Below, piece after piece: positions 1-43,645 of a stretch of DNA of 43,645 nucleotides; position 1 is the stretch's first letter; every line of letters begins with the position of its first letter. Under the pieces are notes generated by a model, which ran no database searches, had not been told where the DNA came from, and saw only the letters and a program-made list of their open reading frames with translations. The position numbers were made by a program, and so were the translations under genes. Where the stretch lies: the IMG/VR virus record IMGVR_UViG_3300036797_000080, positions 1 through 43,645 of that record; one strand, written 5' to 3'. Source of the DNA: a virus (Duplodnaviria; Caudoviricetes).

Positions 1-127
1 GCTTCCAGCCTGCGCGTTTGGCGCCGAGCATTTCAGAACCGGAACCGGAGAAGGGAATTAGTATCCGGGCATTCGGGATCGCCGGCAGGATCAAACGCGC
101 GAGGTATTCGGTCAGCTTCAGCGGTTT
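1..127. repeat. 127-bp terminal direct repeat, left copy (assembly overlap indicating a circular/complete genome)
   Basis: 1..127 is identical to 43519..43645; joining the ends restores one continuous methyltransferase ORF. Confidence 0.95.
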
Positions 128-940
128 AACGCAGGGATGATCGTTCCTGGCCGTTACCTTGAATCTGTCTCTCTGTTTGCCTTCGTCGTCAGTGGAAAAC
201 TTGCCGCCGCAGCCGGATTGAAACGTCTTTAATTCGCCGCTCAGGCCCGCGTCACGTTCCGCGCGGCTCGCTTTCGCGCAGTAGAAGAACCGCGATGCAC
301 CGCCGGAGTCGTCATGCGTCGAGCCGTTCACGACAGCAGAAGCGTTATACATGCAGCCCTTGTTCGAGTGAGCGGGCGCAGGCCTGCTCCGCGTCGTTCC
401 GCTCATTTCATCGAGCGCCGCCCCGCTGGTTTCGTCGAGCAGCACGTTCGCGGGCCAGCGGCCCAGACCGTGAGAGTTATCGACCCACGGCGTCGTGTTC
501 CGCTTGTTGAACGTACTCGTGCTGTGATTCAACCTGCCCAGCGCTGCGGATGTCTTGATCCGGCAGCCGTCGATATTCAGAACCGGCGCGGGCGCGCGTT
601 TCCGCGCCAGAATGATCGGCTCCCAGGCCGGCTTGAGGCTTCCTTTGCCTTTGGGGAATCCCTGCCCGTAGAGCCACATCAGACAATCGCGGATCTCGAA
701 ACCGGCGTCCTCGATGGCGCACGCCAGCCGGTGATGCGTCCGCGTGCCCCCGAAGGCCATAAGGAACGAACCCGGCTTCAGGACGCGCAGAACTTCCGCC
801 CATGTCTCGGCTGCCGGCACGCCGTGATCCCACTGAGCGCCCATGAATTTAAGACCGTAAGGCGGATCCGTCAGACAACCATCGAAGGTGTTAGCCTTCA
901 GCTTTTTGAGAACCGTCAGCGCGTCGCCGGTGTGAATCAT
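1..940 (-). CDS. DNA N6-adenine/N4-cytosine methyltransferase (beta class), N-terminal part; continues across the contig junction to 43454 (334 aa total)
   Basis: Absent from the ORF track; my translation from ATG 940 gives MIHTGDALTVLKKLKANTFDGCLTDPPYG (DPPY catalytic motif)...GQGFPK...KPAWEPIILARK...HPCVKP...IPFSGSGS (SAM motif). ATGA overlap with the upstream gene. Confidence 0.92.
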   Translation of the reverse strand, partial: MIHTGDALTVLKKLKANTFDGCLTDPPYGLKFMGAQWDHGVPAAETWAEVLRVLKPGSFLMAFGGTRTHHRLACAIEDAGFEIRDCLMWLYGQGFPKGKGSLKPAWEPIILARKRAPAPVLNIDGCRIKTSAALGRLNHSTSTFNKRNTTPWVDNSHGLGRWPANVLLDETSGAALDEMSGTTRSRPAPAHSNKGCMYNASAVVNGSTHDDSGGASRFFYCAKASRAERDAGLSGELKTFQSGCGGKFSTDDEGKQRDRFKVTARNDHPCVKPLKLTEYLARLILPAIPNARILIPFSGSGSEMLGAKRAGWK

Positions 941-1867: not shown

Positions 1868-2443
1868 TCACGCCCCGAGCAGCATCCGCAGCCGGTCGAG
1901 CGCGTCGTCGCGATCGCGCCGAACTGTAGCGAAGGAACAGTTGAGCTCCTTCGCAACCGCGCGGAGCGAAGGTTCGGCCGGCCCGAAGTAGAGCTCAATC
2001 AGGTGTTTCTGCCGTTCGGGCAGGCAGTCGATCGCAAGCGCCACCGCTCGGGAGCGTTTTTCGACATCGATCGTCGATTCAAAATCAGGGATTGATGCGG
2101 GTTCGTTTTCGGGATCGAGCGGCGCGCGCGTGTGTTCCGAATAGCATTTCCGCCGGACTGACTCAACGATGGCGCCGTGGACTATCGGCCACGCAAAAGC
2201 CCGGAATGGTGTCTCTCCGTGCTCACTCGGACGGTACCGGGTCGCGGCCCGCAGCAGCCAGAACCGCCCGGTTCCGATGAGGTCCGCCAGTTCGAACGAC
2301 GGGGGAAGGCCTTTGTGAACCTTGCGCGCGATCCTGTCAACCATGCGCAGATTACGCGCGACAAGGGCGTCGCGGCGGGCGAAGACTCTCGCCTGGTGAC
2401 TGCCGGAATCGATCGGGACGACAGGCGCGCGTCGGGATGGCAC
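1868..2443 (-). CDS. sigma-70 family RNA polymerase sigma factor (FliA/WhiG-like regions 2 and 4)
   Basis: LVARNLRMVDRIARKVHKGLPPSFELADLIGTG..LLRAATRY..FRAFAWPIVHGAIVESVRR (region 2); AIDCLPERQKHLIELYF..SLRAVAKELNCS (region 4 HTH). Start uncertain (GTG 2443 or up to 2503). Confidence 0.9.
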   Translation of the reverse strand: MPSRRAPVVPIDSGSHQARVFARRDALVARNLRMVDRIARKVHKGLPPSFELADLIGTGRFWLLRAATRYRPSEHGETPFRAFAWPIVHGAIVESVRRKCYSEHTRAPLDPENEPASIPDFESTIDVEKRSRAVALAIDCLPERQKHLIELYFGPAEPSLRAVAKELNCSFATVRRDRDDALDRLRMLLGA

Positions 2444-2534
2444 GGAGTCTATTATGAATGAAATGTACGAAATAGTACATATCTCACAACATAAAGATTT
2501 CACGCCACTTATCTGAATGTAATGGTTTGGTTAT

Positions 2535-8531: not shown

Positions 8532-9509
8532 ATGCCGGTATCAGGCGAGCAGCTTTGGCTGTTCGAGTGCGGAGGTGTCGATTTGTCCGCTCTAAGTGAA
8601 CGCAGCGAGGTCCTACAGGCTTTTACACGCGCGCCAGCGACCGTCTATAACTACCAGTCCGACTGGAAGCAATACATCCACTGGTGCAATCTCGCGGGCC
8701 GCAACCCGCTGCCCGCTGAGCCGCAGACGGTTCAGCTTTATGTTACCTGGATGCTCGACACGATCAAGCGGAAGATCACGACAGCCGAACGGCATGTTTC
8801 CGCAATCGCTCATTTCCACCGCCTGGGTGGCTTTGCCTCGCCCGTGAGTCCTCCTCTGCGCCGCACTATCAGGGGCGTGCAGAGAGCCCGGCGTGAAAGG
8901 CCAAAGGGTAAGGCGGCGCTCAATCCCGGCGAGCTGGTCAGGATCGCAAAGAAGTTCGATGCGGGGACAGCGCTCGGTACGAGGGACCGCGCTCTTCTCG
9001 TGCTGGGCTTCGCTACGAGCCTTCGCCGGAACGAGCTGGCGCGGCTGCAGCTTTCAGATATTGTGTTCGAAGCGCGCGGCCTGGCAGTCTTTCTGCGTTA
9101 CTCCAAGCGCGATCAGGAGGGCAAGGGCCGCGTGATAGGAGTATGGGCGGGTCAGCGCGCAACAACAGACCCTGTGCGCGTACTGCGGGCCTGGATCCGA
9201 TATCGGGGCGACTGGCCCGGAGCGCTCTTCTGCAGAGTGCAGACCGGCGACGTGGTCAAGCAGAGGCCGGTTTCGGGCGAAGCTTTGAACGAGGCCGTCA
9301 AGCGTGGCGTTGCGAGCATTGGCCTCGACCCCGACAGTTATGGCACGCATTCCCTTCGCGCCGGGGCAATCACGGCTGCCGCGCGGCTTGGAAGAAGCGA
9401 TCAGGAAATCATGGAATTCTCGGGCCACAAAACAGCGAAGACAATGCGGATGTATGTCCGCAGCGCGAGATTGTTCGAGGGCCGGAATCCGCTCGCCGGT
9501 GTGCTTTGA
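8532..9509 (+). CDS. tyrosine recombinase/integrase, Cre-like (N-terminal core-binding domain, no arm-binding domain)
   Basis: T..NYQSDW..Y..WC N-domain; RDRALLVLGFATSLRRNEL, SKRDQ, HSLRAG, SGH, RMY catalytic set. Confidence 0.93.
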   Translation: MPVSGEQLWLFECGGVDLSALSERSEVLQAFTRAPATVYNYQSDWKQYIHWCNLAGRNPLPAEPQTVQLYVTWMLDTIKRKITTAERHVSAIAHFHRLGGFASPVSPPLRRTIRGVQRARRERPKGKAALNPGELVRIAKKFDAGTALGTRDRALLVLGFATSLRRNELARLQLSDIVFEARGLAVFLRYSKRDQEGKGRVIGVWAGQRATTDPVRVLRAWIRYRGDWPGALFCRVQTGDVVKQRPVSGEALNEAVKRGVASIGLDPDSYGTHSLRAGAITAAARLGRSDQEIMEFSGHKTAKTMRMYVRSARLFEGRNPLAGVL

Positions 9510-15382: not shown

Positions 15383-16960
15383 TTACGCCTGCGTCAGGAT
15401 CGTGATGTAACGAGCATCTGCTCCGGTTCCGGTCAGCAGAACCGTGATCACTGTGCCGTTCAGGTCGCCCGCCGAAAAATCGAGCAGGTAGATACCGCTG
15501 GCCAGCTCTGTCGGCGTGTTCGTACAGGACCCGAAAGCCGCGCCGTCAATCGAGCGCGTGGCCGTAATTCCCGTACCTAAACCTGTCTTCGGGGTCACAT
15601 GATCCACTGAGGAAACCATCAGGAAGGCGAAGTTTGAGAGAGCAGTATTCTTCTTGACTGCCATTTCACCGGGCGCATAAGTGACCGCACCGCTCGTGAG
15701 GCTGATCTGGCCCGTCCCGGTGCCGGAGGAAAGCAGCACAGAAGCGCCGATGTCCCGCGCCGTCTGCGCCGTTCCGGCGAGCTTGGCGACGTCGACGCGC
15801 CCCGAGCCATCGATCGAAAGCGCCGAGAAGTTCGACGGGAATGTCTGGGTGAGGCTGTAGCCGGTCTTGTCGCTCACCGTGGATACGGTGTACCCGGTTT
15901 TGTCCGAGATTGTTCCGGCGGTGACCGCGCCCGAGGAAAGGCTGATCTGGCCCGTGCCTGTACCTGGAGAGAGCAGCACGCTCGCGCCCAGATCCCGCGC
16001 CGTCTGCGAAGTGCCGGAGACCTTCGAAACATCCACGCGGCCCGAGCCGTCGATCACCATGGAGGCCCAGTTCGCAGGCGCCGCTCCGATATCGTCTGTG
16101 AGACGCTTGCCGATCGAGCCGGCCGTGGTCAGCGCACTTGTGAGCGCGTCCCAGATGGCCTGAACTCCCGCCGAAGAAATATCGACGCTGCCGCCGCCAC
16201 CCGCGGCAGTGGCCCGGCTTGAGATTGCGGCGTCGATATTCGTCACCAGCAGCTTTCCGATGCTTCCGACCGTCGTCAGCGCGCTCGTCAGAGCGTCCCA
16301 TATTGCCTGGATTCCGCCCGACGACAGAGAATAGCCGGTCTTATCACTCACCGTGGATACGGTATAGCCGGTTTTGTCCGAGACCGTTCCGGCCGTCACC
16401 GCGCCCGAGGAAAGGCTGATCTGGCCCGTGCCGGTGCCCGGAGAGAGCAGCACGCTGGCCCCGAGATCGCGCGCCGTCTGCGAAGTTCCGGAGACCTTCG
16501 CCACGTCAACCCGGCCTGAACCGTCAATCGACTCGAGGTTCCAGTTAGTGGGCGGTGCGAGTGAATTGATTCCGGTTACGAAGGCTGTCGCGCTCTGGTT
16601 ATCGACTGCTGTCAATTCAATTTCGAGTACCAGCGGTGCCATATTGGCCGCGCCCCGGATCATGACGACAACCGACTTCGCCCCGCTCGCGATCGCCGCG
16701 TCGGGTATACCGAGCTGGTACACGCCGGGCATGTTGGTGCCGTCGACAACGATAAAGCCGCCTGTCGCCCATGTACCGAGCGTCATAGTGGCGAGCGTGA
16801 TCGAGGTCGCCGAGCCCGCGCCCTCGCGTAAGTAATAAGCCGCCAGGCCGGAAGTCCCGAACGCGAGACCAGTGAGCCCGCCGCCTGTCGTCGAAGTCGA
16901 ATCCTGAATAAAGACGGTGAGCAACTTGCTGGTCGTACCTTTTAGCAACGAAAGTTTCAT
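15383..16960 (-). CDS. virion fibre/structural protein with internal repeats (525 aa)
   Basis: S/T/G-rich; 3x DGSGRVDV..QTARD.GASVLLS.GTGTGQISL.SGAVT and 2x QAIWDALTSALTT.GSIGK. Confidence 0.8.
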   Translation of the reverse strand: MKLSLLKGTTSKLLTVFIQDSTSTTGGGLTGLAFGTSGLAAYYLREGAGSATSITLATMTLGTWATGGFIVVDGTNMPGVYQLGIPDAAIASGAKSVVVMIRGAANMAPLVLEIELTAVDNQSATAFVTGINSLAPPTNWNLESIDGSGRVDVAKVSGTSQTARDLGASVLLSPGTGTGQISLSSGAVTAGTVSDKTGYTVSTVSDKTGYSLSSGGIQAIWDALTSALTTVGSIGKLLVTNIDAAISSRATAAGGGGSVDISSAGVQAIWDALTSALTTAGSIGKRLTDDIGAAPANWASMVIDGSGRVDVSKVSGTSQTARDLGASVLLSPGTGTGQISLSSGAVTAGTISDKTGYTVSTVSDKTGYSLTQTFPSNFSALSIDGSGRVDVAKLAGTAQTARDIGASVLLSSGTGTGQISLTSGAVTYAPGEMAVKKNTALSNFAFLMVSSVDHVTPKTGLGTGITATRSIDGAAFGSCTNTPTELASGIYLLDFSAGDLNGTVITVLLTGTGADARYITILTQA

Positions 16961-18424
16961 CTATCCCCTCATCCCGCCCGACATACCCGGATTCACCAGC
17001 AGCCCGCCCGCCGCCCCGGCAGCAGATCCCTGCACCGCACCTATATCCGGAGCACCTGTACTTGTCGCACCGGGGAATACGCCCGGGTAGCCGGCCGCTT
17101 TACAGGCCGCGCCGCCCCCGGCTGTTGTGTTCAAAGAAAAATCGCCCGATCCTGAATTAGTGAAAGGGTTCGCCGAAAGCGTCACGTCGCCGGTCCCTGC
17201 CGGAATAATCGTTCCGGTTGAGTCCTTCCCCCGCCCGCCCTGTGTGTTGCCGCCATAGGCATTGGCGCGGGCGATCTGCCAGAGGATGACGGAGGCGTTC
17301 GTGGTGAATACGCCCCAGCCGGCGTTGCCGTAAAAAAGACAGTTCTCAATCGTCACCGTGGGAATGGTGCTGCCCTGATTGAGGCAGATGCCGGAGCCAC
17401 CGCCGACCGTCGAGCCGCCCGTGCCGGTGGCCAGCGCAAACGTGCAGGATCTTGCGATGAAGTGAACGGGCGTGGAGCCGGTCGCGAGAAGGATGTTGAC
17501 CCCGGCGTTGGCTGTTACAAGGCTGCGCTCTATCTTGAGCGTACTGACCGAGAGGCCGCCTGTAGTGATGCCTGTGCCCGCGCCGCCGTTGCCATGAATG
17601 TAGCAGTCGATAACCGAAGTGCTGCCGCTGCCGCCCAGCAGGGCGCCCCAGGTGGTGCAGCCGCTGATCTCGCAGTTCGACAGCAGGAAGTTGGCGAAGT
17701 TGCCCGACGTATTGGCGTCGATGCCCTTCGAACAGCCGGAGATCTTGCAACCGCTGATCGTAATGCCAGGACCGCCCGAGCCCGCCGCGATACCGATGCC
17801 GGGCGTTCCCGCCGAGCTGCTGAAGTTGATATTGCTCACCCAGTCCGAGAGCCCCGCCGCAAATCCCCCCGCAAGGGTCAACAGGGTGATCGAGTTGGTT
17901 GCGGTCGTCATGAGCGGCGCGGTGCCGCCGTCGTTGTGCGTGGTGCCGTAGCCAATCAGGGCGTTCTGAATCGAGCCGGCGGTCAGCGTGGCCCCGGTGG
18001 TCACGGTATAGGTGCCGCTCTTGACGTGTACCGCATTACCGGAGCCAGCGAGTGTAGCCGCCTGGCCGATTGTCAGCAGAGATCCGCCGAGGTTGCCAGT
18101 GCCGCCGGTCGACGAAGTGGTTCCGACAGCTTTGTCGCATGTTGCGGTCGTTCCTGAAACGCTCACGACCTGCACGCGCTGAACGGTAAAGCCGGTACCG
18201 CCCGTAATGTTGATGACGTTTCCCGGCGACGTCGATCCAAAAGGGTTACCCGCAGACGTGATTTTGGTGTTTGTCGTGGCATCGATAACCAGATCTGTAA
18301 ACGCTATAAACGCTGCGTCCTGCTGGCTCCGGTCGGTCCCGGTGGCAGCGGTATTGAAGCCGCCGCCGTTGGCGTCGCTGCCGGTCGTTCGCACATCCCA
18401 TTCGGTCGAAGTGTTGAATGCCAT
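16961..18424 (-). CDS. tailspike-like right-handed beta-helix (pectin-lyase-like) protein (487 aa)
   Basis: VHVKSGTY motif, parallel beta-helix repeats (ISGCKISG, IENCLFYGN), C-terminal DFSL..DIGAVQ. Confidence 0.8.
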   Translation of the reverse strand: MAFNTSTEWDVRTTGSDANGGGFNTAATGTDRSQQDAAFIAFTDLVIDATTNTKITSAGNPFGSTSPGNVINITGGTGFTVQRVQVVSVSGTTATCDKAVGTTSSTGGTGNLGGSLLTIGQAATLAGSGNAVHVKSGTYTVTTGATLTAGSIQNALIGYGTTHNDGGTAPLMTTATNSITLLTLAGGFAAGLSDWVSNINFSSSAGTPGIGIAAGSGGPGITISGCKISGCSKGIDANTSGNFANFLLSNCEISGCTTWGALLGGSGSTSVIDCYIHGNGGAGTGITTGGLSVSTLKIERSLVTANAGVNILLATGSTPVHFIARSCTFALATGTGGSTVGGGSGICLNQGSTIPTVTIENCLFYGNAGWGVFTTNASVILWQIARANAYGGNTQGGRGKDSTGTIIPAGTGDVTLSANPFTNSGSGDFSLNTTAGGGAACKAAGYPGVFPGATSTGAPDIGAVQGSAAGAAGGLLVNPGMSGGMRG

Positions 18425-18446
18425 TTATCCTCGTCAGTTGCCCTCG

Positions 18447-18836
18447 TCAGTGCGTATACTCGGCGAAAAACCAGCCTGCGTCCGATGCCTTCGGGGCGGT
18501 TACGAATGTGATCGTGGCGCCCGAGAGCGTATAGTCCGCGGTGAGCGATTGCATCACGTTCAGGAAGACCTCGAGCGAGCCTGCAGTGGGCGTGTGCGCC
18601 AGAGTGAAAACTTTGTTGGTCCCGTTCAGCGTTCCGGACGGTACTTCCCGCACCCATGTGACACCGCCGCCCGGCGCGCCGCCGTCGATCGAGCTCCCAT
18701 CCGTTCCGAAGACGAGCATGTGGCCCGCGGTGAATGCCGCAGTCGTGTCGGCCATCTGTACGACTGTCGTATCGCCCAGCCGGCATTTAAGCTTGAGCTG
18801 ATCGGCATCGAGGTTGCCGCGGACTGTTTTAGGCAT
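18447..18836 (-). CDS. small tail-fibre module protein (129 aa)
   Basis: RGNLDADQLK N-motif; EVPSGTLNGTNKVFTLAHTP...VFLN...DYTLSGATITFVTAP domain. Confidence 0.8.
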   Translation of the reverse strand: MPKTVRGNLDADQLKLKCRLGDTTVVQMADTTAAFTAGHMLVFGTDGSSIDGGAPGGGVTWVREVPSGTLNGTNKVFTLAHTPTAGSLEVFLNVMQSLTADYTLSGATITFVTAPKASDAGWFFAEYTH

Positions 18837-19422
18837 TGGTCTCGAGGAGCTTATCGATCAAAGTCAGAACGGAACTGGATATCCCCGGCAGCGCTTTGCG
18901 AAACTCTTCGGGCGTAGCGCGACGGCTGGCGATCCATGTGGCACGCGAGAGGATCAACTGCGCAGCATCTCTGGCTGTGTGCCACGCCGTGCCCATCTGC
19001 GCGTTTCGCAGCCCGGCCGCGCTCGACAGATGCCAGCCCACCATTTTCGACGAGACTGTGGCGCAGCGCATAGCGACAGCGGTATCCCGGTCTGTGGCAA
19101 CAATGCCGGGAGGAGGAGTCACGGTAAGCAGCATCGCGAGGACAGCATCGATGTCCCTGCTCGTTTGGGCAACGGACTCGCTTGAAAGTTCCTGCATGGT
19201 CGACAAGGTTCTCGCTCCGATGACGGTCGCGAGATCGAGCCACGCGGGCGCGCATTCGCGCACGATCCAGTCGAGCGAGATCCACGCGCGCGCTTCTTCC
19301 CTTGCCGCGTCGGTAACGCCGACATTCTGCGAGGACAACAGATCGAGTTTGGCGCAGAACTCCGCATCCGAGACGAGCGCTTCTTTCCAGAGCCGTACGT
19401 ATTCAGCGATGAGTGGCGACAT
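18829..19422 (-). CDS. helical hypothetical protein (197 aa) inserted among fibre genes
   Basis: EARAWISLDWIVRECAPAWLDLA; composition unlike the flanking fibres. Confidence 0.7.
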   Translation of the reverse strand: MSPLIAEYVRLWKEALVSDAEFCAKLDLLSSQNVGVTDAAREEARAWISLDWIVRECAPAWLDLATVIGARTLSTMQELSSESVAQTSRDIDAVLAMLLTVTPPPGIVATDRDTAVAMRCATVSSKMVGWHLSSAAGLRNAQMGTAWHTARDAAQLILSRATWIASRRATPEEFRKALPGISSSVLTLIDKLLETNA

Positions 19423-19427
19423 AAAAG

Positions 19428-20486
19428 TCAGGCAGGCGAGAGCGGGGTCGGCCCCCAGTAGACTTTGAGGTTCGGCTGGTCAGCCATTGGACCGCTGATC
19501 GGATCGCGGTGAATTTCGGCGTATGTAGCCGGGTCCCCGTCGTACGCCTTCTCCCCGTTAATCATGTAATTGAACGGATCATTGAGTGCCCCGCACACTC
19601 CATCAGTATTCGCTGAGACGTGGAACACCGGCCGCTGATTGACGGTCTTGCCGTTCGAGAATGTGAAGCGGATCCACACATCGTAGACGAGGAGCTGCGA
19701 GATCTGGTTCGGGTTCCCGACCCCTTCGAAGATTTCGAAATTGAGCGAAAAGACGTAACCGGCGTCCGTTGTCGCGCCATATTGATAATCCGTTCCGAGA
19801 AACGGATAAGGAACTCCGGTCAGGTCATGCGGCCCGGACGTCGTGACTGGCCAGGCAGTCGTACTCCCTGGCATGTAGCTTCCGAGGCCAAACCATGGAT
19901 TCAGGTAATCGGTCAGATCGGCAGTCTGATAAGGACTCTCATCACCCGAGGCGACGGCGAAGCCAAATGAATCGAGCACCCGATGCTCTGTGATGTGAAA
20001 CAAGTCGATCGCGGTGATGGTTGCCCCACCGCCCGAGCCTGCATCGCCCGCGAAGTACGTGGCGATCAGATAGTCGTCTGCTTTGACCGGGTAGAGCAGC
20101 GTGACAGTAAGGCCGTTGATTGCATACTCGCCTCCGCCCAGAACGAATCCCTGTTCCGCGTAAGCGAACGGCGTCAGCTCGCTTCCGTTAAGCGACAGGA
20201 TGACGATCCGGTTGCCGGTGATCGTACTGACAAGCGGGTAGTGCGAGAGCGTGAAAACCTTGTTCGATCCGTCCCTTGTCCCGGCCGGCGATTCCTGAAT
20301 CCACTGGCCGGCCCCGCCGCCTGCGCCGGCAGCTCCGCCGTCGATCAGATTGCCCTGGGACCAGATCCCGATATTTCCGTCGGCCTTCGCGCTCTCGGTG
20401 GTCGTTACGAACTCAACTGCGCGCTCCGCTCCGGAGAGATCGCCTTCGCGGATCTGGGTAAGCCTGACATTGCCCCGGTTCGGCAT
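19428..20486 (-). CDS. modular tail-fibre protein (352 aa)
   Basis: RGNVRLTQIR N-motif; ESPAGTRDGSNKVFTL domain; C-domain paralogous to the N-domain of the 1675-aa protein. Confidence 0.8.
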   Translation of the reverse strand: MPNRGNVRLTQIREGDLSGAERAVEFVTTTESAKADGNIGIWSQGNLIDGGAAGAGGGAGQWIQESPAGTRDGSNKVFTLSHYPLVSTITGNRIVILSLNGSELTPFAYAEQGFVLGGGEYAINGLTVTLLYPVKADDYLIATYFAGDAGSGGGATITAIDLFHITEHRVLDSFGFAVASGDESPYQTADLTDYLNPWFGLGSYMPGSTTAWPVTTSGPHDLTGVPYPFLGTDYQYGATTDAGYVFSLNFEIFEGVGNPNQISQLLVYDVWIRFTFSNGKTVNQRPVFHVSANTDGVCGALNDPFNYMINGEKAYDGDPATYAEIHRDPISGPMADQPNLKVYWGPTPLSPA

Positions 20487-20490
20487 GTTT

Positions 20491-23400
20491 TTACGGTCGC
20501 CCCGAGTACAGAGTGACCGCAGCACCGCCCAGGCGGTTGCCGGCGTTCAGATAAGATTTCGACACGCCTGCGCGCGTTTCCGTGATGACAGTGACGCGCA
20601 CGGAACCGGAACTCAAGCCCGCAATCGAAGACTGCGAATCGGTTTCAAAATACCCGAGGTAAGACCCAGGGCCCGGCGTCGAGTTGAACGCGCCGAGTAT
20701 TTCCGTCCGGCCGCCGCTTTCGGTCGACCAGAGCCCGAGGCCGGTGCCGCCCGCGCCGGTGCCCTCAGTCTTGTAGCCGAGACACCAGAAATCGGCCCCG
20801 ATATTGACCACCTTGGTGTTGTCGGATTCGATGTCGAATTGCCGCGCCCATGCCTGGCCTCCGCTCTGCGTGATCGTGCCCGGGATGGCTGCGTTTTCGA
20901 AAAAGACCACGAGGCCCGTGCCTGAACCGTTTCCGTATCCCGACGGATTGAAAACATCCGCAACCACCAGCGGCACGGTCGCATGATTCACAAGCGAAAT
21001 GTCTCCCAGAAACGCCAAACTGCGGAAGTCGATCGATGCGCCCGAGGTTCCTGCGAAGGTGATCGTGTGCGATCCCGCTGTATTCAGCTGCGAGTAGAGT
21101 CCGCAGATGCGCCGCACGCCGGTTGGGACTGTCAGATTGCCTGAGATCGTGTAGGCTCCGGCCTGCAAAAAAACGATCGGCTTTCCTGCATTCAGCGCGG
21201 TCTGAATGTCTGTTGTCCTGTCGCCGCCGCCAGCCGTCACAACGGCCCAGTGCGTGAAATCGTTGTCTGCCAGGAAGGCCGGTGTCTCGAGGATCGGCAG
21301 ATTGAGCGAAGTCGTGGCCGCGGGCAGAAACAGCGGGACGTATCCGAGCGAGCTGTATTCGGTTATGTTCGTGCCGCCCACGCGGGCAATGGCTGAGAAG
21401 TACCCGCTCGAGGTGATGTTGCGCGCAAACAGAAAGGCGTTGTTCAGGACCGCGCTTCCGCCCGGGGAAGCTCCGGTGAATGCGGAATCGATCAAAACCA
21501 TGTTGCCCACGCCTTCGTTCAACACTGCCTGCGCGGCCGCGGATGTAGTCACTTTCAGATCCCGCACCCAGGTGTTCTGATTGGAATTCCAGAGCCCGAT
21601 CAGATTCGGACTCGAGGATATGTTGATGTGCTCCCAGGTGATTCCGACCTCTCCGGCCCCGTTGATGATTCCGTAGTCGAAGGTCCCCGAGATGGTCAGG
21701 TTCTTGACCAGAGCCGGGCCGTTGCCGCCGCCGCCCCAGCCGCGCGATGCGTTCAGCGCCACGCGCCCCGAGCCTTTGATCGTTACGTTGCGGATGGATG
21801 CCATGTTCGAACACACCCAGTCGATGGCTTCTGCCCCGGGGTTGCCTGTTCCGGTATCGAGAGTCAGATCGTGGATGTCGTTGTAGTAACCGGCCTCACC
21901 GGCGCCAAGGGGGTTGGTCTCGGCTTCCGATGCCGTGTAGATCATGGCCTTGGCGTTGATGGCCGCGAGATCGTAAAGCGGACTGCCGGTTGCATTGCCG
22001 AATCCCGACGCGCTGTTTGCGAGCTTGATCGTGGTGGTCGACTCGTTCTGGCCCCAGAAGGCGATATAGGCCCGCCACGTTGCGCCCGCATCTTTCCAGA
22101 CGAGGGTGTCGGAAATCAGATACGTCCCGGCCGGGAAATAGATCACGTTGAGCTGATGGGCGAGCGCGTAATAAATGGCCGCCTGAATTGCCGCGGTATC
22201 GTCCGTCGTGCCATTGCCCGCTGCGCCGTGCGCCGTGACATCCACCACGCCCGACCCGGATGGAAACACCACGTCGGCAACACTCGCGACTACCGGAATC
22301 CCGACCGTCAGCACCAGAACCGTTGTGTGGCTGGTGGCTCCGCTTGACGCGCTCACAGTGAGCAGGCTGGTCGCGTCGGGCGTTCCGCTCGAGGTCACGA
22401 CGGTAAGCGTCGACGTTCCCGCGCTGGTTCTCGAGGGCGGGCTGAACGTTCCGGTGGCTCCCACGGGTAACCCCGAGACCACGAGCGCCACCGTGCCCGC
22501 GAATCCGGCGAGGAATCCGATCGATACGGTGTAGGTAGTCGTATCGGTTGCGTTGATAGTTCGCGATGCCGGCGTCGCCGAGATTGTGAACCCGTCCGAG
22601 GTATCGATCGGGATGGTGGCTTTATCTCCGGCCCAGTAAGCTGCCGAAAATTCGTCCGTAGATTCGGGCGCGACTGCCATCACGATGTGATTCGACTTCC
22701 CGGCAAGCGTGTAGCGAGGGAAGTACGGATCCTGCTCGATGCCGTTGACGAGCAGAATGAACGGTACTTCCGGAGGCGTTCCGGTCGGCGCCGTGGTCGG
22801 AACGAAGTCGAGATAGAAATCGCGGTTCACTCCGTTCCGCGTCCCGGCAGGTTCCTGTTCGTACCAGATGCCCTGCTGCCCGGGCGTGACGGTCTGCGTG
22901 CCGCCCGAGGTCGCGACCAGTCCGCCGCTGGCACCGCCGCCGGCCGATCCGCCGCCGCCGCCGAGACCTTCCCAGAAGTCGAGAAACGATCCGATCTCCT
23001 GGATGTCTACCGCTTTGATCGTGTACCTGTAATGTCCCTGGCCGTTGCCGATCCATTTTGAGACCGGAACCATTTCGGCGTCGATTTCCTCGATCACCCA
23101 GTCCCCGTTCAGCAGGTCCCGGCCTCCGATCGGATAGAGAAGATCGACCGGTAAGGCCATTCCCGCCTGCAGGCCCGGGGTGAATGTTTTCAGCTCGAGC
23201 GCTGTCGGAGCCACTTTGAAAGACTTCAGTGCTTCCTGCGCGAACTGAAGCCCGGATGCAGCGGATGTTTTGATCAGCCCGGTTGAGGATGCGTCGGTGA
23301 TCTGCTGAACCTTCCCGGTCCCGTGCGTGATTTCAGCGAAAGCATTGACGAGCGCCGTGTCCTCGACTTCGATTACGTCTCCGCCAGCGCGGGTGTATTC

Positions 23401-25518
23401 CACGTTCAGGTTCGATCCGACATTGAGCGGAGTTGCGAGCGTGATGACCGCGGATCCCGGCGTATAGGCAAGACCCGGAGATGCGACCGAGGTCCCCTGC
23501 ACGTAAACCTGCAGCGAGATCGTCGCGCCCTCGCCCGGGCCGAGCGAGCCTTGCGGGGACGTGCCACCGGTGGTGACAGGACTCGACCATGAAAAGGCGC
23601 TTGAAGTGGTCGACAGCGCGGCAATCCAGCCCGTGCCCGCGGCCTTCTCCTGCAGCGTGAAATGCGTGCCCGAAAGATTGACGGCGTTGCACAGCGCGCA
23701 CTCCCAGGTGGGCAGCGAATAGGTCACACCGGCGATCTGGGTACCGTTGAAGGTTCTCGTCGCGTTGATGGCGCTGACGAGATTTGTGCAGGTATCGGCA
23801 GCCGTCTGGTCGATCAGCACCTGGCCGAACAGGGTATTGTCGAGGTCGGTGACGAAAGTATAGGTATCGGTGCCGTTTGAAAGTCCGGAGAGTCCCTGAT
23901 CGGTCCAGATGACCGCTCCATCGATGGTCGTTCCGCCCTTGTCGTCCCAGATCGGCGGAGCAGGCCCGGGCCCGGAAAGTCCCGGCAAGGTCCCGCCGGT
24001 GATCTTCTGAACGTGCCCGGCGGAATCGATGATGGTCCCGCCCAGTGCGTAAACGTGCGTTGGAAGCCAGGTCCCGACCGGAGTGCCGATGGTGATCGTG
24101 TCTCCCGGCGCCGGCTGCCCTGCAAACGTACCTGTCGCGGTGTTCGGCGTCGACAGCGTGGCGTAAGCGTTCGTGACCTGCTCGACGGGACGCATCAGGG
24201 TAAACGTCTGCTGCCCCGCTCCGACAAAGAATTCGCCCGAATGCGCGAATGCATCCATGCTCAGCCGGATCGCCTGCCGGTTACGATAATCTGCGCCGTT
24301 CACCTTCCAGGTGATCGAGTCCCAGAGGATGGGCTGGTCCGTCAGAGGCGCGAAGGGTGCGGGTGCAGGTGCGACAGACGGTACATCGAACACCAGCTGC
24401 CTCGTCGACGGATCCACGTACCAGGTGTATTGAGAAGTGGTCGCGAGCTGCGTGAAAATCTCGCTCAGCTTTTCGTAATTCGTGTTGAAGAGCGGGATGA
24501 TCGCTCCGTCTCCGATCGCGCCGAGCGTTACCGGGCAGCCTGTTTCAAAGCGGTTGAACAGGTCTGTGACGATAAAGCCCGCAGTCTGTTCGAAATACTG
24601 CACCGGCGAGGCATACACGGTGTCGAAGACCGACTCGAGCGATACCGCGGTGAGCAGGACGAAACGGTCGCCGGCGTTGTGCCCGGTCCAGTCGTTCTCG
24701 ATGTCCTGTATCAACCCGGCGAAGACGAGGAAGAATGTCGTGTCGTCGGTCTGGTCCCAGAGGTATACAGGCGCGCCCCGGGTTGGGACGTAACGATCTC
24801 CAGCCGCGATGAAAAGGTGAATGGTCGCCTGTCCCCTCTGCCGTAACTGCTGTGAGAAGCTGTTCTGCTGCGAGTCCCCCATGTGCAGATAAGGAGTTCT
24901 GTCCGTCATACCGATGACAGGTTCATCGATTACCAGCCACGCCTGCGGCGGGGGCGGCGGAGGTGGCGGCGGAGTAAACGGCGCCGCGAATGCGCTCAGT
25001 TTCAGGCTCGGCCAGTCGGTCATCGGCCCGCTGACCGGATCCCGGTGAATCGTGGCGAACGTTGCCGGATCGCCGTCTATCGCGTTATCGGGATTGAGGA
25101 CGTAATTGTGAGCGTCGACGCCTGGAATTCCATCGAGCGGAGTCGATGCGTTGCCGACGATGTCCGACTTGGTTGGTCGGTATGTAACTGCGGTTCCGGT
25201 TGTATCGGTAACGACGACCCAGGTATCGTAAACGAGATAATCCGCGACCTGATTCGGATTGGCAACGCCCTGGAAAAGATCGAAGACCAGGAACCAGTTC
25301 GCGCCCCATCGCATCGCGGGCTCCAGGGTCTCGAGATCGATGTGAAATTCGGTTCTGCCAAACGGTGTGGAGATCGGAAGCCCGGGCGTCCAGATGGATT
25401 GCCCCAGGCTGAACCAGTTCCCGCCGTTGGCGGATATCGACGGCGTCTGCTGCGCTACCGCGGCATTGGCGTCGTATTCGAGGATGACGTGCAGAACGGC
25501 CGAAACGATCGCGCTCAT
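20491..25518 (-). CDS. large tail-tip/hub protein fused to carbohydrate-binding, Ig-like and pectate-lyase-3/GH55-like depolymerase domains (1675 aa)
   Basis: Directly follows the tape measure gene; hub-like FAGLIQDI..WYVD segment; VDVTAHGAAGNGTTDDTAAIQAAI..IYFPAGTYLISDTL beta-helix start. Confidence 0.85.
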   Translation of the reverse strand: MSAIVSAVLHVILEYDANAAVAQQTPSISANGGNWFSLGQSIWTPGLPISTPFGRTEFHIDLETLEPAMRWGANWFLVFDLFQGVANPNQVADYLVYDTWVVVTDTTGTAVTYRPTKSDIVGNASTPLDGIPGVDAHNYVLNPDNAIDGDPATFATIHRDPVSGPMTDWPSLKLSAFAAPFTPPPPPPPPPQAWLVIDEPVIGMTDRTPYLHMGDSQQNSFSQQLRQRGQATIHLFIAAGDRYVPTRGAPVYLWDQTDDTTFFLVFAGLIQDIENDWTGHNAGDRFVLLTAVSLESVFDTVYASPVQYFEQTAGFIVTDLFNRFETGCPVTLGAIGDGAIIPLFNTNYEKLSEIFTQLATTSQYTWYVDPSTRQLVFDVPSVAPAPAPFAPLTDQPILWDSITWKVNGADYRNRQAIRLSMDAFAHSGEFFVGAGQQTFTLMRPVEQVTNAYATLSTPNTATGTFAGQPAPGDTITIGTPVGTWLPTHVYALGGTIIDSAGHVQKITGGTLPGLSGPGPAPPIWDDKGGTTIDGAVIWTDQGLSGLSNGTDTYTFVTDLDNTLFGQVLIDQTAADTCTNLVSAINATRTFNGTQIAGVTYSLPTWECALCNAVNLSGTHFTLQEKAAGTGWIAALSTTSSAFSWSSPVTTGGTSPQGSLGPGEGATISLQVYVQGTSVASPGLAYTPGSAVITLATPLNVGSNLNVEYTRAGGDVIEVEDTALVNAFAEITHGTGKVQQITDASSTGLIKTSAASGLQFAQEALKSFKVAPTALELKTFTPGLQAGMALPVDLLYPIGGRDLLNGDWVIEEIDAEMVPVSKWIGNGQGHYRYTIKAVDIQEIGSFLDFWEGLGGGGGSAGGGASGGLVATSGGTQTVTPGQQGIWYEQEPAGTRNGVNRDFYLDFVPTTAPTGTPPEVPFILLVNGIEQDPYFPRYTLAGKSNHIVMAVAPESTDEFSAAYWAGDKATIPIDTSDGFTISATPASRTINATDTTTYTVSIGFLAGFAGTVALVVSGLPVGATGTFSPPSRTSAGTSTLTVVTSSGTPDATSLLTVSASSGATSHTTVLVLTVGIPVVASVADVVFPSGSGVVDVTAHGAAGNGTTDDTAAIQAAIYYALAHQLNVIYFPAGTYLISDTLVWKDAGATWRAYIAFWGQNESTTTIKLANSASGFGNATGSPLYDLAAINAKAMIYTASEAETNPLGAGEAGYYNDIHDLTLDTGTGNPGAEAIDWVCSNMASIRNVTIKGSGRVALNASRGWGGGGNGPALVKNLTISGTFDYGIINGAGEVGITWEHINISSSPNLIGLWNSNQNTWVRDLKVTTSAAAQAVLNEGVGNMVLIDSAFTGASPGGSAVLNNAFLFARNITSSGYFSAIARVGGTNITEYSSLGYVPLFLPAATTSLNLPILETPAFLADNDFTHWAVVTAGGGDRTTDIQTALNAGKPIVFLQAGAYTISGNLTVPTGVRRICGLYSQLNTAGSHTITFAGTSGASIDFRSLAFLGDISLVNHATVPLVVADVFNPSGYGNGSGTGLVVFFENAAIPGTITQSGGQAWARQFDIESDNTKVVNIGADFWCLGYKTEGTGAGGTGLGLWSTESGGRTEILGAFNSTPGPGSYLGYFETDSQSSIAGLSSGSVRVTVITETRAGVSKSYLNAGNRLGGAAVTLYSGRP

Positions 25519-40090: not shown

Positions 40091-40687
40091 TCATCCCTGT
40101 TCATACACTTTGCGAGCCGCAGTGTCGCGTTCAGCGTTTCGCATTTGCGCGTAAACCATCGTGCTGCGGATGTCGCGGTGGCCGAGCCAGTCCTTGACGT
40201 CGTAAATGCCTGCGCCTTTTGCGATCAAATGCGTGCCGAGCGAATGTTTCAGCGAGTGGGGGTGGCGCAAATGCTCGGGCAGGCCGGCTTTGATTGCGTA
40301 GTTTCGGAACAGGCTGTGAATCATTCCGCGGCCGATGCCGGGAGCTTTCTTGCCCGTCGCAGCCAGCATGAAACTCGAGCTTTGCCGGGATGTGAACATC
40401 GGACCCGCATTATTGCCGCGGACTTCTTTCCAGTCGTTCAGCGCTTTGGTCTCGTGCGGAGAAAGCGGAAATTCTCCCGAGAGCGAACTCTTGAGGCGGG
40501 AGATGTAAATCTTCTTCTTTTTCTGGTCCCAGTCCGACCAGGGAATACGCCCGATTTCAGAGGCGCGAAGCCCTCGCCAGTACGCTAAAACGAAGATTGC
40601 GCGATCCCGCGGCGTTTTTACGACGCCGAGGAACTGCTTTAACTCTTGTTCTGTCAGGTACTTGCGCTTGTCAGAAACGGCTTTCAT
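40091..40687 (-). CDS. FimB/FimE-like small tyrosine recombinase (catalytic domain only)
   Basis: RKYLTEQE, RDRAI..LAYWRGLRASE, ISRLKSS, HPHSLKHS, WLGHRDIRSTMVY. Confidence 0.92.
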   Translation of the reverse strand: MKAVSDKRKYLTEQELKQFLGVVKTPRDRAIFVLAYWRGLRASEIGRIPWSDWDQKKKKIYISRLKSSLSGEFPLSPHETKALNDWKEVRGNNAGPMFTSRQSSSFMLAATGKKAPGIGRGMIHSLFRNYAIKAGLPEHLRHPHSLKHSLGTHLIAKGAGIYDVKDWLGHRDIRSTMVYAQMRNAERDTAARKVYEQG

Positions 40688-40779
40688 GAGATGAACAAAA
40701 TGCTGAAAATGTGCAACTCGCAAGGCTCAGCAATCAAATCCAAAAGACTTACGGGCGCGAAAAACATGGCCGCCAAGCG

Positions 40780-41079
40780 TCAAATGTCTAACTCGGCCGG
40801 CAGGGCTACATGAGCTTTCTCGCGTTTTACGCGAGGTTTCGGGAAAGCCTTTGCGAGCGTGGTGCGCCGCATTTCGACGATGTTCATCTTGGGAATGGTC
40901 AACCAGAAACGTGCCTCGAGGCCATCGCCAGGTGATTCGGTGCCGAGCGTCAGCGTGTGGTCCGATTCCTTCAGCAGGAAGCCAACTTCGTGAAGCTCGG
41001 CGAGATCGCCCAGTGAAGAAATCGCATGCTGAGAATTCGAGTTGACGGCGTCGCGCCAGCGTACGTAGATCAGGGTCAC
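40780..41079 (-). CDS. hypothetical phage protein (99 aa)
   Basis: IYVRWRDA...VGFLLKE...TIPK.NI pattern; GTGA coupling. Confidence 0.75.
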   Translation of the reverse strand: MTLIYVRWRDAVNSNSQHAISSLGDLAELHEVGFLLKESDHTLTLGTESPGDGLEARFWLTIPKMNIVEMRRTTLAKAFPKPRVKREKAHVALPAELDI

Positions 41080-41270
41080 GGTTTCTCGTGGGGAGGACAG
41101 CCTTCTTTTTTGTGCTCAATGAGGCAGATCGAGCAAAGCGGTTTCACGCAGACTCCGCAGAACAGCTCGCGATGGCTGATTTTGCAACGAACGCATGGCC
41201 CCTGAAATAATACGGGCTCGCGTTTTTCCTTTTCCCACACGCCGGCCGGGATGGGATCCGATTCATTCAT
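41076..41270 (-). CDS. small B-box-like zinc-finger protein (64 aa)
   Basis: CVRC...FCGVCVKPLCSICLIEH; ATGA coupling. Confidence 0.7.
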   Translation of the reverse strand: MNESDPIPAGVWEKEKREPVLFQGPCVRCKISHRELFCGVCVKPLCSICLIEHKKEGCPPHEKP

Positions 41271-41785
41271 GCGGCCTTCAAAGAAGCGTGGTCTATTTCA
41301 ACGGCGCACGATCTCTGCAGGATCTCGATCGAGACGACCAGTTTCGTCGAGCCTTTTGTCCTGACCACGATTCCTTCGCATCCTGCAAGCGGCCCTGAAT
41401 CCAGGATGACTTTCGACCCGATCACATACGGATGCGGGCTCACAGTCAATCTGGAATCAAGGGCTGTCCTGAGATTCCGGATCTCACGATCGGGAATCTC
41501 GGAAGGGTTGAGGGAGGAGGGCAATATCTGGACTACGCCTTGCGTGGCGACGACTTCGGCGAATCGGGTCTGCTCGGTTTGTATGAAAAGGTATCCGGGG
41601 AAAAATGGTCGGTGTATGACTTTGATCCGGTCGGACCAGCGATTCGTTTCTTTGTAAAAGGGTAAAAAACAGATGAAGCCGCGGCGCCCGAGAGTTTCCG
41701 CTACCTTGAAATCCTGATTCGAGCGAAGCCGCAGGGCGAACCATGAAGGGGCTGCTGCAGAGGAGGGAGGACAGGCTTCCGCCAT
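41267..41785 (-). CDS. NusG-paralog transcription antiterminator (UpxY/RfaH-like, NGN + KOW)
   Basis: WFALRLRSNQD..FLP...RWSDR.K....PFFPGYLF; KOW GSKV....GPLAG.EGIV; start 41785 or 41830. Confidence 0.92.
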   Translation of the reverse strand: MAEACPPSSAAAPSWFALRLRSNQDFKVAETLGRRGFICFLPFYKETNRWSDRIKVIHRPFFPGYLFIQTEQTRFAEVVATQGVVQILPSSLNPSEIPDREIRNLRTALDSRLTVSPHPYVIGSKVILDSGPLAGCEGIVVRTKGSTKLVVSIEILQRSCAVEIDHASLKAA

Positions 41786-41862
41786 ATCAGTCACAGTTCG
41801 CCTTCGGAGAAAAACTGCGGCCTCCTGCACTTACTTAGTCGGCACGGCGCGGGAAAAAGTGC

Positions 41863-43011
41863 TCATGCGGCCGCTCTCAGGCTGCTTTCCGGGAGGGCTT
41901 CGCATCGCGCCCAGGCAGCTCGCGCAAGCGTGCGGAATGCGTATGCAGCCACAAGCGGTACGACGCCGTTGCCAAGGGCGCGCAGTCGCTCCACCCGCGC
42001 GGAAATCCCATCAGACTCTCGACAAAGACCGGGTTCAAGCGTCGGATCGCGTCTGAGGATTTCGTGCCATCGGTCGAGGTCGGCAGGTCCGGGCGGAAAC
42101 AAACAGCGATCCACGGTAAATGCGTCTGATTGCCTCCCTTGGTTGTTCGTCCGTTGTGCGGGCCATCGTCGGCTTTTGGCGTCGGCCACGCCATCGCCTG
42201 TTTCGCAAATTCCCCGCCCCCGCCCGCCGTCTTGCCGAAGCGATCCGTATTCCCCATGCCGTGAAGCGTCTTCCAGTTCCGCGTCGCTCCCGTCAGCGAA
42301 TCCGTCGTGCCCGGATGGTTCCCGCACGATTCGGAATCCTCGCTGCGCGGCGTCGGCCAGTTCTGTACCGTATCGACCAGCGATCCGCCTCCCCGTATTC
42401 CGCTTTTCGCTCCCGTGTGCTGGACCTTGCCCGATGGCATCACAATCACCGGTCGCCGGATTCCATCGAAGTCGGCATTCGATGCCTGCGCGGTAGGCCA
42501 GGACGAAGAGCCGTTTTCTGAGGTGAGGCGCGCCGACTTCCTCCGCTGTAAAGATTCCCGCCTCAAGTTCGTAACCCATGCTTCGTAGCTCTTTTGCGAC
42601 CGCGTGAAATCCGATGCGCAGATGGTTCTCGACGTTTTCGAGGAAGACGACGGGCGGCTGAACTTCGCGGATGATCCGTGCGACATCAGGCCAGAGATGA
42701 CGCGGATCTTTTTCGCCGCGCTGTTTTCCGGCACAACTGAACGGCTGGCAGGGATAACCGGCAGTGAGGATATCCACGCGGCCGCGCCACGGTTGGCCGC
42801 GGAAGGTTTTAACATCCGTCCAAACAGGCGCATCTTCAAGGGAGCCGTCTTCCATGCGCGCGACCAGCTTGTCGCAGACCGTTGCTTCGTGCTCCACGTA
42901 ACAGACTGTGCGCACCGCTTCCAGAGCGAGCTTGAGTCCGAGGTCGATGCCCGCGATTCCGGCGCACAGAGAGAGGACGGCAGGTGTATCCACATTCAAA
43001 ATTCCTTTCAT
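41863..43011 (-). CDS. DNA cytosine-5 methyltransferase, alpha polypeptide (motifs I-VIII and X)
   Basis: LSLCAGIAGID (I), AGYPCQPFS (IV), FLENV (VI), HLRKRLF (VIII), RLRALGNGVVP (X); no motif IX in this frame. Confidence 0.93.
   Translation of the reverse strand: MKGILNVDTPAVLSLCAGIAGIDLGLKLALEAVRTVCYVEHEATVCDKLVARMEDGSLEDAPVWTDVKTFRGQPWRGRVDILTAGYPCQPFSCAGKQRGEKDPRHLWPDVARIIREVQPPVVFLENVENHLRIGFHAVAKELRSMGYELEAGIFTAEEVGAPHLRKRLFVLAYRAGIECRLRWNPATGDCDAIGQGPAHGSEKRNTGRRIAGRYGTELADAAQRGFRIVREPSGHDGFADGSDAELEDASRHGEYGSLRQDGGRGRGICETGDGVADAKSRRWPAQRTNNQGRQSDAFTVDRCLFPPGPADLDRWHEILRRDPTLEPGLCRESDGISARVERLRALGNGVVPLVAAYAFRTLARAAWARCEALPESSLRAAA
41877..42995 (-). CDS. overlapping alternative-frame polypeptide (putative MTase beta subunit: WPTP repeats plus motif IX)
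   Basis: 372-codon open frame nested in the MTase; WPTA/WPTP/WKTL/WPTP repeats; RRLNPVFVESLMGFPRGW resembles motif IX; AAGGA SD 7 nt before the ATG. Confidence 0.75.
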   Translation of the reverse strand: MWIHLPSSLCAPESRASTSDSSSLWKRCAQSVTWSTKQRSATSWSRAWKTAPLKMRLFGRMLKPSAANRGAAAWISSLPVIPASRSVVPENSAAKKIRVISGLMSHGSSAKFSRPSSSSKTSRTICASDFTRSQKSYEAWVTNLRRESLQRRKSARLTSENGSSSWPTAQASNADFDGIRRPVIVMPSGKVQHTGAKSGIRGGGSLVDTVQNWPTPRSEDSESCGNHPGTTDSLTGATRNWKTLHGMGNTDRFGKTAGGGGEFAKQAMAWPTPKADDGPHNGRTTKGGNQTHLPWIAVCFRPDLPTSTDGTKSSDAIRRLNPVFVESLMGFPRGWSDCAPLATASYRLWLHTHSARLRELPGRDAKPSRKAA

Positions 43012-43457
43012 GCGCGTCCGGTCGCAATCATTTGGGCGAGGCGTTTCGCGCGCTCTCCGGTCTCGCGATACCAGGCGGAGTTTTCCATCGCTTTCGAAGC
43101 GAGGCCGAACTGATGCCGGCCGATAAAATCGAGGGTCTGGTGAAAAGTGTCGAGTCCCGCGACGCCGAGGTTGAACGCCATATTGGCCACGACTCTCTGT
43201 CTCACGTCATCGAGCCATGGAAACCAGGCGTAGTTTTTAACGAGAGCCGCTGTAATGGCATCGATGTCGTTCGAGCATAAATACTCCGCTTCCGCTTCCG
43301 TGATTCCGTGGACGTCTAGAGCGCGCCCGATGCCGATCGACGGATGTCCGACTACGGTCGAGAATTTGACGATGTTTTTCCCGGTCGCGTCGTCATAGGC
43401 GAAAAGTTTCAGGCCCTCGTCACGGCGCAGTTCTGCGATCAGCAGCGGTTTCGTCAT
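43008..43457 (-). CDS. phage lysozyme/endolysin (T4-like GH24)
   Basis: LRRDEGL.L..YDD..G...SIGIGR...LD.VRQRV..NMAFNLG...AS.AM.NS.WY...G.RA.RL. Confidence 0.92.
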   Translation of the reverse strand: MTKPLLIAELRRDEGLKLFAYDDATGKNIVKFSTVVGHPSIGIGRALDVHGITEAEAEYLCSNDIDAITAALVKNYAWFPWLDDVRQRVVANMAFNLGVAGLDTFHQTLDFIGRHQFGLASKAMENSAWYRETGERAKRLAQMIATGRA

Positions 43458-43645
43458 GCGGCCATCCGCTGCGCGCCGATATTCACGTATGCCGGATTCA
43501 TTTCGATTCCGTCTATGCGCTTCCAGCCTGCGCGTTTGGCGCCGAGCATTTCAGAACCGGAACCGGAGAAGGGAATTAGTATCCGGGCATTCGGGATCGC
43601 CGGCAGGATCAAACGCGCGAGGTATTCGGTCAGCTTCAGCGGTTT
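43454..43645 (-). CDS. C-terminal part of the junction-spanning N6/N4 methyltransferase
   Basis: Reads ...FSGSGSEMLGAKRAGWKRIDGIEMNPAYVNIGAQRMAA*; stop overlaps the lysozyme ATG (ATGA). Confidence 0.9.
   Translation of the reverse strand, partial: KPLKLTEYLARLILPAIPNARILIPFSGSGSEMLGAKRAGWKRIDGIEMNPAYVNIGAQRMAA
43519..43645. repeat. 127-bp terminal direct repeat, right copy
   Basis: Exact copy of 1..127. Confidence 0.95.

Follow-up and report, generated by a model that had tools for sequence, protein, structure and literature searches.

The window (43,645 nt) comprises an entire virus record bounded by direct terminal repeats, and it carries the gene set of a temperate tailed phage (portal, terminase, Clp protease, capsid and two tyrosine recombinases). 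On the minus strand, genes for an N6/N4 methyltransferase, a lysozyme, a C5 methyltransferase and a NusG-like protein follow one another, and then come HNH and terminase genes. Inspection of the adjoining genes revealed no restriction endonuclease beside the C5 methyltransferase gene, which is flanked by the lysozyme gene and the NusG-like gene. The N6/N4-type enzyme (PF01555), a second DNA methyltransferase encoded upstream of the lysozyme, occupies 43454-43645 joined across the record ends to 2-940 (minus strand); the alignment to G001 reaches 43457 and leaves out most of this gene. The NusG-like antiterminator (41267-41830, minus strand) lies directly after the C5 methyltransferase, ahead of the packaging genes, and a 64-aa Cys/His-rich frame at 41076-41270 (minus strand) has a weak match to a B-box zinc finger (E 0.006). 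One tyrosine recombinase is encoded at 8532-9509 (plus strand); the other (40091-40723, minus strand; 210 aa) consists of the catalytic domain only and sits before the HNH and terminase genes. The phage also encodes a sigma-70-family factor with regions 2 and 4 (1868-2503, minus strand) and, at 15383-25518 (minus strand), several large proteins of the tail region, whose domains are beta-helix or pectate-lyase-like. The G001 alignment further contains a 198-nt repeat between 15858-16055 and 16332-16529.

At the C5 methyltransferase gene, two frames of the same strand are open over about 1.1 kb, as a sequence-only reading had noted: alpha from 43011 to 41863 and beta from 42995 to 41877. Alpha encodes 382 aa from an ATG at 43011, or 376 aa from a GTG at 42993 (chain at 41863-42993), and matches phrog_363 (PHROG 363; E 6e-60) as well as Pfam PF00145, the latter within residues 12-177 only. 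Among the PF00145-type features, it holds the SAM-binding motif I (42969), the catalytic Pro-Cys of motif IV (GYPCQ, 42759), the ENV of motif VI (42645), motif VIII (42525) and motif X (41941-41985), and a pattern search of the whole alpha frame found no IX-like pattern; the claim of five motifs without IX was thus borne out. The catalytic motifs are invariant across relatives. The structural model of alpha, whose closest structural matches are M.HaeIII and M.HhaI, was confident over the core and motif X and fell below pLDDT 50 at residues 193-304. The alpha linker at 42100-42495, a shadow of the module array carried by beta, is neutral in sequence, predicted to be disordered and interrupted by stops in two relatives; the LADA, LEDA and VADA segments that had earlier been taken as signs of such a shadow occur at residues 218, 246 and 275. 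A motif IX and a recognition-bearing variable region on the same chain are not present in alpha, and an IX-like segment and a selected variable region are found on beta.

The beta chain (41877-42995, minus strand; 372 aa) is nested in alpha in the +1 frame and matches phrog_1008 (E 2.6e-18). Its leader (residues 1-165; 42501-42995) lies beneath alpha motifs I-VIII and is stop-free and moderately constrained, with predicted helices at residues 21-50 and 134-153. Beta had no Pfam family, Foldseek or PDB profile match, and its model, folded alone, was poor (pLDDT 60, pTM 0.26); Atlas placed it nearest to PF00145 clusters (0.93), but out-of-frame translations of genuine genes can reach such scores, and this result was set aside. 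In the 11 other long genes of the window, the +1 frame contained 8-52 stops, with a longest open stretch of 41-126 codons, as compared with 372 here. For the window alone, the probability of a core without stops was 0.001 with the codon usage of neighbouring genes and 0.15 when its own codons were shuffled, and the proof of beta therefore rests on the gene family.

The relatives examined comprised 85 loci from viruses, 12 from genomes and 9 from phage records with annotation. Of these 106 relatives and the window, 85 had motifs I, IV and X in a single closed frame, and the 22 loci that were dropped were truncated, frameshifted or missed by the motif patterns; most of the dropped loci listed carry the same +1 frame with motif IX, as read by eye. 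After reduction to 57 non-redundant loci (<90% identity), the +1 frame stayed open in 55, from upstream of motif I to motif IX inclusive, so that homologs do keep both frames open, as the earlier reading had proposed to check; the exceptions, L095 and L101, have an internal beta start. Synonymous resampling of the 50 loci with enough neighbouring genes predicted 322 core stops in the +1 frame, of which 6 were seen, all in L095 and L101, and the strictest null, in which each gene's own codons are shuffled, predicted 143 in the 57 loci; these counts cover related loci and are not independent events. When the alpha alignment was used for a second scan, 80 loci were recovered out of the approximately 3800 stretches estimated to hold the patterns, with a core +1 stop in 0 of 79 scored loci and a module-region stop in 1 of 79. 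A protein search with beta gave 243 matches. Five loci (L021, L087, L137, L163 and L178) have shifts of one base that fall within the module array or close to it and displace both frames; these are either assembly errors or dead copies.

Frame-specific selection was examined by a substitution test on 20 disjoint locus pairs. In the variable region, change per site was 0.320 where only beta stays silent, 0.077 where only alpha stays silent and 0.066 where neither does, a contrast that was unchanged when the pairs were aligned by alpha; beta is therefore the protein in this region and alpha the passenger. In the core the rates were 0.42 (both silent, 64 sites only), 0.14 (alpha-only silent), 0.055 and 0.032, and both frames are constrained there, with alpha dominant. 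Four-fold sites of the alpha core diverged by 0.072, as compared with 0.243 in flanking genes, and were lower in all 15 pairs with enough flank, pairs that had been chosen for core similarity, which biases this comparison. The two-frame openness of the gene is thus confirmed as real and kept under selection.

In two relatives the alpha linker is itself interrupted, with 4 stops in 230 linker codons in L091 (alpha at L091:2447-3778) and 8 in 332 in L139 (L139:1440-3050), showing that the alpha linker sequence is dispensable. The core and beta are free of stops in both relatives, as are the final 67-68 codons ahead of motif X, and in both a separate, ATG-led motif X frame is preceded by a GAGG or an AAGG/AGGT site; on this arrangement, the two would be candidate three-chain enzymes. 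The L091 genome additionally holds an intact copy. A recoded genetic code for L091 was considered and rejected, the alpha stops there being TGA, TAA, TGA and TGA.

The two frames begin at a paired start (42991-43007, minus strand) in which, as had been described, one AAGGA ribosome-binding site (43007-43003) precedes an overlapping ATGTG that offers ATG to beta (42995) and GTG to alpha (42993), 2 nt apart; the AAGGA lies 7 nt ahead of the ATG and 9 nt ahead of the GTG. Examining the relatives revealed [A/G/T]TGTG in 53 of 57 loci (39 A, 13 G, 1 T and 0 C, the first base being free for alpha), and in 25 of these 53 the GTG is, by hand count, the first possible alpha start after the upstream stop. 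No Shine-Dalgarno match was found in 9 of the 53. The window's spacing is 13/15, and 25 of the 53 loci stand at 12 or 13. Dual initiation at AUGUG and GUGUG has been demonstrated in E. coli reporters, which at 13/15 spacing favoured AUG and made little use of GUG, according to the accessible text of Kohl et al. (PMC9841429), and beta therefore probably takes most of the starts led by the Shine-Dalgarno. An in-frame alpha ATG at 43011, which went unmentioned in the sequence-only reading, overlaps the lysozyme stop as ATGA (43008-43011, minus strand) and is an alternative start with possible translational coupling; alpha may depend on this ATG, or such coupling may top up its supply. The same ATGA overlap is present in L001.

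Another start geometry was found in 19 of 29 non-redundant loci of the second scan, a second clade, and in 18 of these 19 it reads [A/G/T]TG-N-ATG by eye, with the alpha start 4 nt before the beta ATG. Both the AUGUG-type and the AUGGAUG-type geometry thus occur in this methyltransferase family. Similar cases, with two out-of-frame starts under one Shine-Dalgarno, are E. coli pqiA and tamA (AUGUG) and Thermus rnpA-rpmH (AUGGAUG), the last named as an earlier ambiguous-start case in the accessible part of PMC9841429, a paper from which the word 'methyl' is absent. The alternative frames of pqiA and tamA are described in that same part as 10-15 residue peptides of unknown use, whereas each frame in the methyltransferase family is long and under selection, and the two products are predicted to belong to a single enzyme.

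Just ahead of motif X, beta carries RRLNPVFVESLMGFP at 42044, where a motif IX segment had been proposed, and this IX-like segment (41985-42044, minus strand) runs up to the first base of the alpha motif X core. The window's IX fragment alone matched no Pfam family. Two relatives depart from this architecture. In L101 (Mycobacterium phage Estave1, 1189-2292), of a single-chain type, the main frame contains motif IX together with two PTP-like anchors, the anchors between VIII and IX, a position that supports the reading of the modules as recognition units; a shorter +1 frame with an internal start is retained. In L107 (Streptomyces platensis plasmid NZ_CP108975, 568-1539), motif IX is in the main frame while the +1 frame still encodes a leader followed by two LPTP modules and ends ahead of IX, so that the array, rather than IX, may be the main cargo of beta. 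Among 119 beta homologs, one has a spurious motif IV pattern and one enters motif X after an apparent one-base shift, and a look through 146 candidates for module regions in a longer, fused form revealed none, which is weak evidence.

Between the leader and motif IX, the window's beta chain carries four modules on the minus strand: module 1 (42360-42500; 47 aa, WPTA anchor), with which no relative clustered; module 2 (42276-42359; 28 aa, WPTP), of a type with 72 members in our sample; module 3 (42189-42275; 29 aa, WKTL), of a type with 55 members; and module 4 (42045-42188; WPTP, including the spacer to motif IX), of a type with 3 members. The four WPT(P) repeats of the sequence-only reading are hence present as anchors, but the units differ in sequence and are not tandem copies; outside the anchor they are mutually unrelated, and a search for DNA repeats detected no more than one 14-nt pair, which connects two of the four. 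The sample, which is biased towards the window's own module types, comprised 153 beta chains from 53 loci and from the 106 of 118 protein matches with the IX pattern. These contained 636 modules (1-8 per chain, mostly 26-50 aa), grouped into 43 types with at least 3 members and forming 131 distinct arrays. The same type occurred twice in 1-2 of the 153 chains, as compared with 25-28 in shuffles (shuffle minimum 14), and 62 type pairs were found in both orders under a slightly looser boundary rule. A model of tandem copies was rejected on these grounds, the sequences being different and a type almost never recurring within a chain.

Judged by their sequences, the modules are therefore distinct types that have been exchanged and reordered. 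Module number does vary among homologs, a point that the sequence-only reading had put forward as a check, yet what varies is a shuffled library of distinct modules and not an expanding repeat. The core of L001 is 98.8% identical to the window, but its array is different and 36 codons shorter, and a near-identical phage departs from the window chiefly in this region. In a contig of run X2, too, the sequence at this position has been replaced. Since the alpha copy of the array is only a linker, any gain, loss or exchange of modules that comes in multiples of three bases could be accommodated. The anchor threonine was present in 94% of modules, preceded by P in 58% and followed by P in 77% and by V or A in 22%. 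The last anchor lay a median of 52 aa before IX (within 10-60 aa in 119 of 153 chains). Attempts to guess a target were uninformative: C/T differences between the window and G001 (175 sites; ACG 21 vs 10.5 expected) were rejected as confounded with codon position, and genome k-mer depletion revealed generic palindrome avoidance only.

The nearest precedent is M.EcoHK31I, an E. coli two-chain C5 methyltransferase recognizing YGGCCR (PMC2836561 and PMC3404938, as far as their accessible text goes), the alpha chain of which is reported in the accessible part of PMC2836561 to be inactive alone. As comparator we used L110, a gene that matches a primer published in the available portion of the PMC2836561 supplement and occurs in 81 of 5426 E. 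coli genomes, its identity with M.EcoHK31I being inferred from primer match, lengths and ends. In M.EcoHK31I as in the phage gene, alpha holds I-VIII and X, and a +1-nested beta holds motif IX. The IX of the phage beta family is in the same frame and place as that of the M.EcoHK31I-like beta, which matches PF00145 positions 234-298, though the similarity between the two is weak (hhalign probability 13%, E 0.002). The M.EcoHK31I beta, in contrast, has 176 aa and an internal start 310 nt into alpha, with +1 stops upstream of it; the gene lacks a module array and adjoins a restriction endonuclease, and its predicted recognition domain is placed on alpha in the accessible parts of PMC2836561 and PMC3404938. 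In the phage gene, the internal beta start, the recognition domain on alpha and the neighbouring endonuclease are all missing: beta spans the whole gene from a shared start, carries the selected variable region, and belongs to an orphan enzyme. The analogy drawn earlier therefore stands for motif IX on a +1-nested second chain and fails for the recognition domain, and the features that set the phage gene apart from M.EcoHK31I are the full-length nesting, the shared start and a probable recognition region on beta. M.AquI is likewise a natural two-chain split, in which, according to the accessible text of PMC3404938, the genes are consecutive, I-VIII first and then a distal variable region with IX-X, so that X goes with IX.

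Taken together, the locus most likely encodes an orphan phage two-chain C5 methyltransferase of the M.EcoHK31I kind, in which alpha is the predicted catalytic chain and beta the predicted supplier of motif IX and of the recognition modules. Depletion of stops, frame-specific selection and conserved paired starts all speak for the proposal of a two-chain enzyme whose IX and variable region are located on beta. In this model, ribosomes would very probably start at the ATG for beta and at the GTG or the lysozyme-coupled ATG 43011 for alpha, coupling the supply of both chains, and by analogy with M.EcoHK31I we would strongly expect the two chains to form a heterodimer. Methylation would probably protect the phage DNA from several host restriction enzymes. 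By analogy with multispecific Bacillus phage enzymes, we lean slightly towards each W-x-T-P module being a target-recognition unit built round a TL-like threonine and used singly, so that this four-module enzyme would methylate several sequences. More tentatively, the family could be a very large one among phages, of fully dual-coding two-chain methyltransferases with a single ambiguous start, in which the hidden chain would be a combinatorial assembly of specificity modules, each 26-50 residues long and taken from a common stock with over 40 types.

The explanation that high G+C content and codon bias, or an assembly artefact, account for the open +1 frame would accommodate the window alone, given the value of 0.15 under the own-codon shuffle at its 62% G+C, but it is refuted by openness across relatives at 45-66% G+C, by beta-specific selection and by a second assembly that agrees base for base. 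The latter is a Logan contig (depth 65) identical to the window over 41300-43600, the run of which may be the window's own source; no RNA run was listed among the sequencing runs matched to the locus. A single polypeptide made through two programmed frameshifts, reading alpha I-VIII, then the beta modules and IX, and then alpha X, would restore the canonical motif order and finds in-frame arrangements in relatives (L101, phrog_116). We consider it very improbable, because beta begins at a conserved start codon of its own and runs through the entire core without a stop, slippery-type sites occur after VIII in 6 of 53 loci and before X in 3 of 53, none of them shared, and the alpha linker, needless for a shift, is open in nearly all loci. 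Also against frameshifting, IX abuts the X core, the IX-to-X distance being 65 nt in 42 of 52 loci as compared with 96 nt in L101 and L107 (hand count).

It is also improbable, if less so, that beta is a real protein outside the enzyme (an inhibitor, a regulator or an anti-restriction protein) and that alpha works alone or is inactive. The absence of a structural match for beta would agree with such a role, as would L107, where modules persist in the +1 frame even though alpha is equipped with a motif IX. However, alpha has neither IX nor a selected variable region and is thus without the small domain, which makes the specific contacts in C5 methyltransferases (accessible text of PMC3404938), yet its catalytic motifs are invariant. 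In addition, P0121, a member of the beta family, weakly matches PF00145 positions 197-295 (E 0.014). A two-chain enzyme of single or relaxed specificity, in which the last module or none contacts bases and the others are spare cassettes, affinity boosters or protein-binding motifs, is a more serious alternative, albeit one that we regard as rather unlikely. Some types do occur mostly at the end of the array (25 of 32 members in one and 22 of 24 in another), the modules are short and poorly folded in the model, and relaxed specificity is known from some characterised phage m5C enzymes of other, larger families (PMC5537653, accessible part). Internal modules, on the other hand, are under amino-acid selection, keeping 19-22 of 25-28 residues between proteins with leaders about 50% identical, and the avoidance of duplicates fits non-redundant functions. 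We thus retain the two-chain enzyme with recognition modules on beta as the preferred reading.

Multispecific C5 methyltransferases of Bacillus phages, and M.BssHII (Trautner), carry tandem, non-identical, exchangeable units before motif IX, each built around a conserved threonine, in single-chain enzymes; the recognition domains of the Bacillus phage enzymes measure 38-57 aa. The phage gene resembles these in its array of non-identical exchangeable modules before motif IX. Its modules (mostly 26-50 aa) are often shorter, however, and the array is placed on a separate chain read in a different frame; the anchors are of the form W-x-T-P instead of T-L, and any multispecificity is putative. The published TL consensus, PT(I/L/V) in the accessible part of PMC2413257, fits the anchor only partly, as P follows T in 77% of modules where I, L or V is expected. 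The phage layout is not described in the literature searched, a body of text mostly outside subscription journals and outside REBASE, and no account of it occurs in the accessible parts of PMC5537653, PMC6536676, PMC12707154, PMC11855218, PMC2884959, PMC3706429 and PMC4081073.

If this reading holds, the gene would be the first case of AUGUG-type dual initiation yielding two long subunits of one enzyme, and a natural programmable methyltransferase with a readable code from module to DNA motif. Were the modules recognition units, they would form a large natural library from which C5 methyltransferase specificity could be decoded and recombined, and the exchange of 80-150 bp cassettes would let a temperate phage readjust how it is shielded from restriction. 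The conserved paired starts offer a direct natural test of ambiguous initiation, hitherto studied mostly with reporters, and a 1.1-kb same-strand overlap in which constraint shifts between frames along the gene is a clean model of overlapping-gene evolution. Annotation of one frame also has practical consequences: a clone in which the start was changed or codons were recoded would no longer make beta and would seem inactive, and specificity predictions made from the annotated frame would read the wrong one. PHROG 363 (alpha) and PHROG 1008 (beta) are both labelled DNA methyltransferase, labels that carry no mechanism. The record of Synechococcus phage Sc-Yong805-2 (L105:1232-2161) annotates the beta frame only, as hypothetical, and misses the catalytic frame; among the nine GenBank phage records compared, one, Xanthomonas phage PhiXhv-5, is annotated with both frames.
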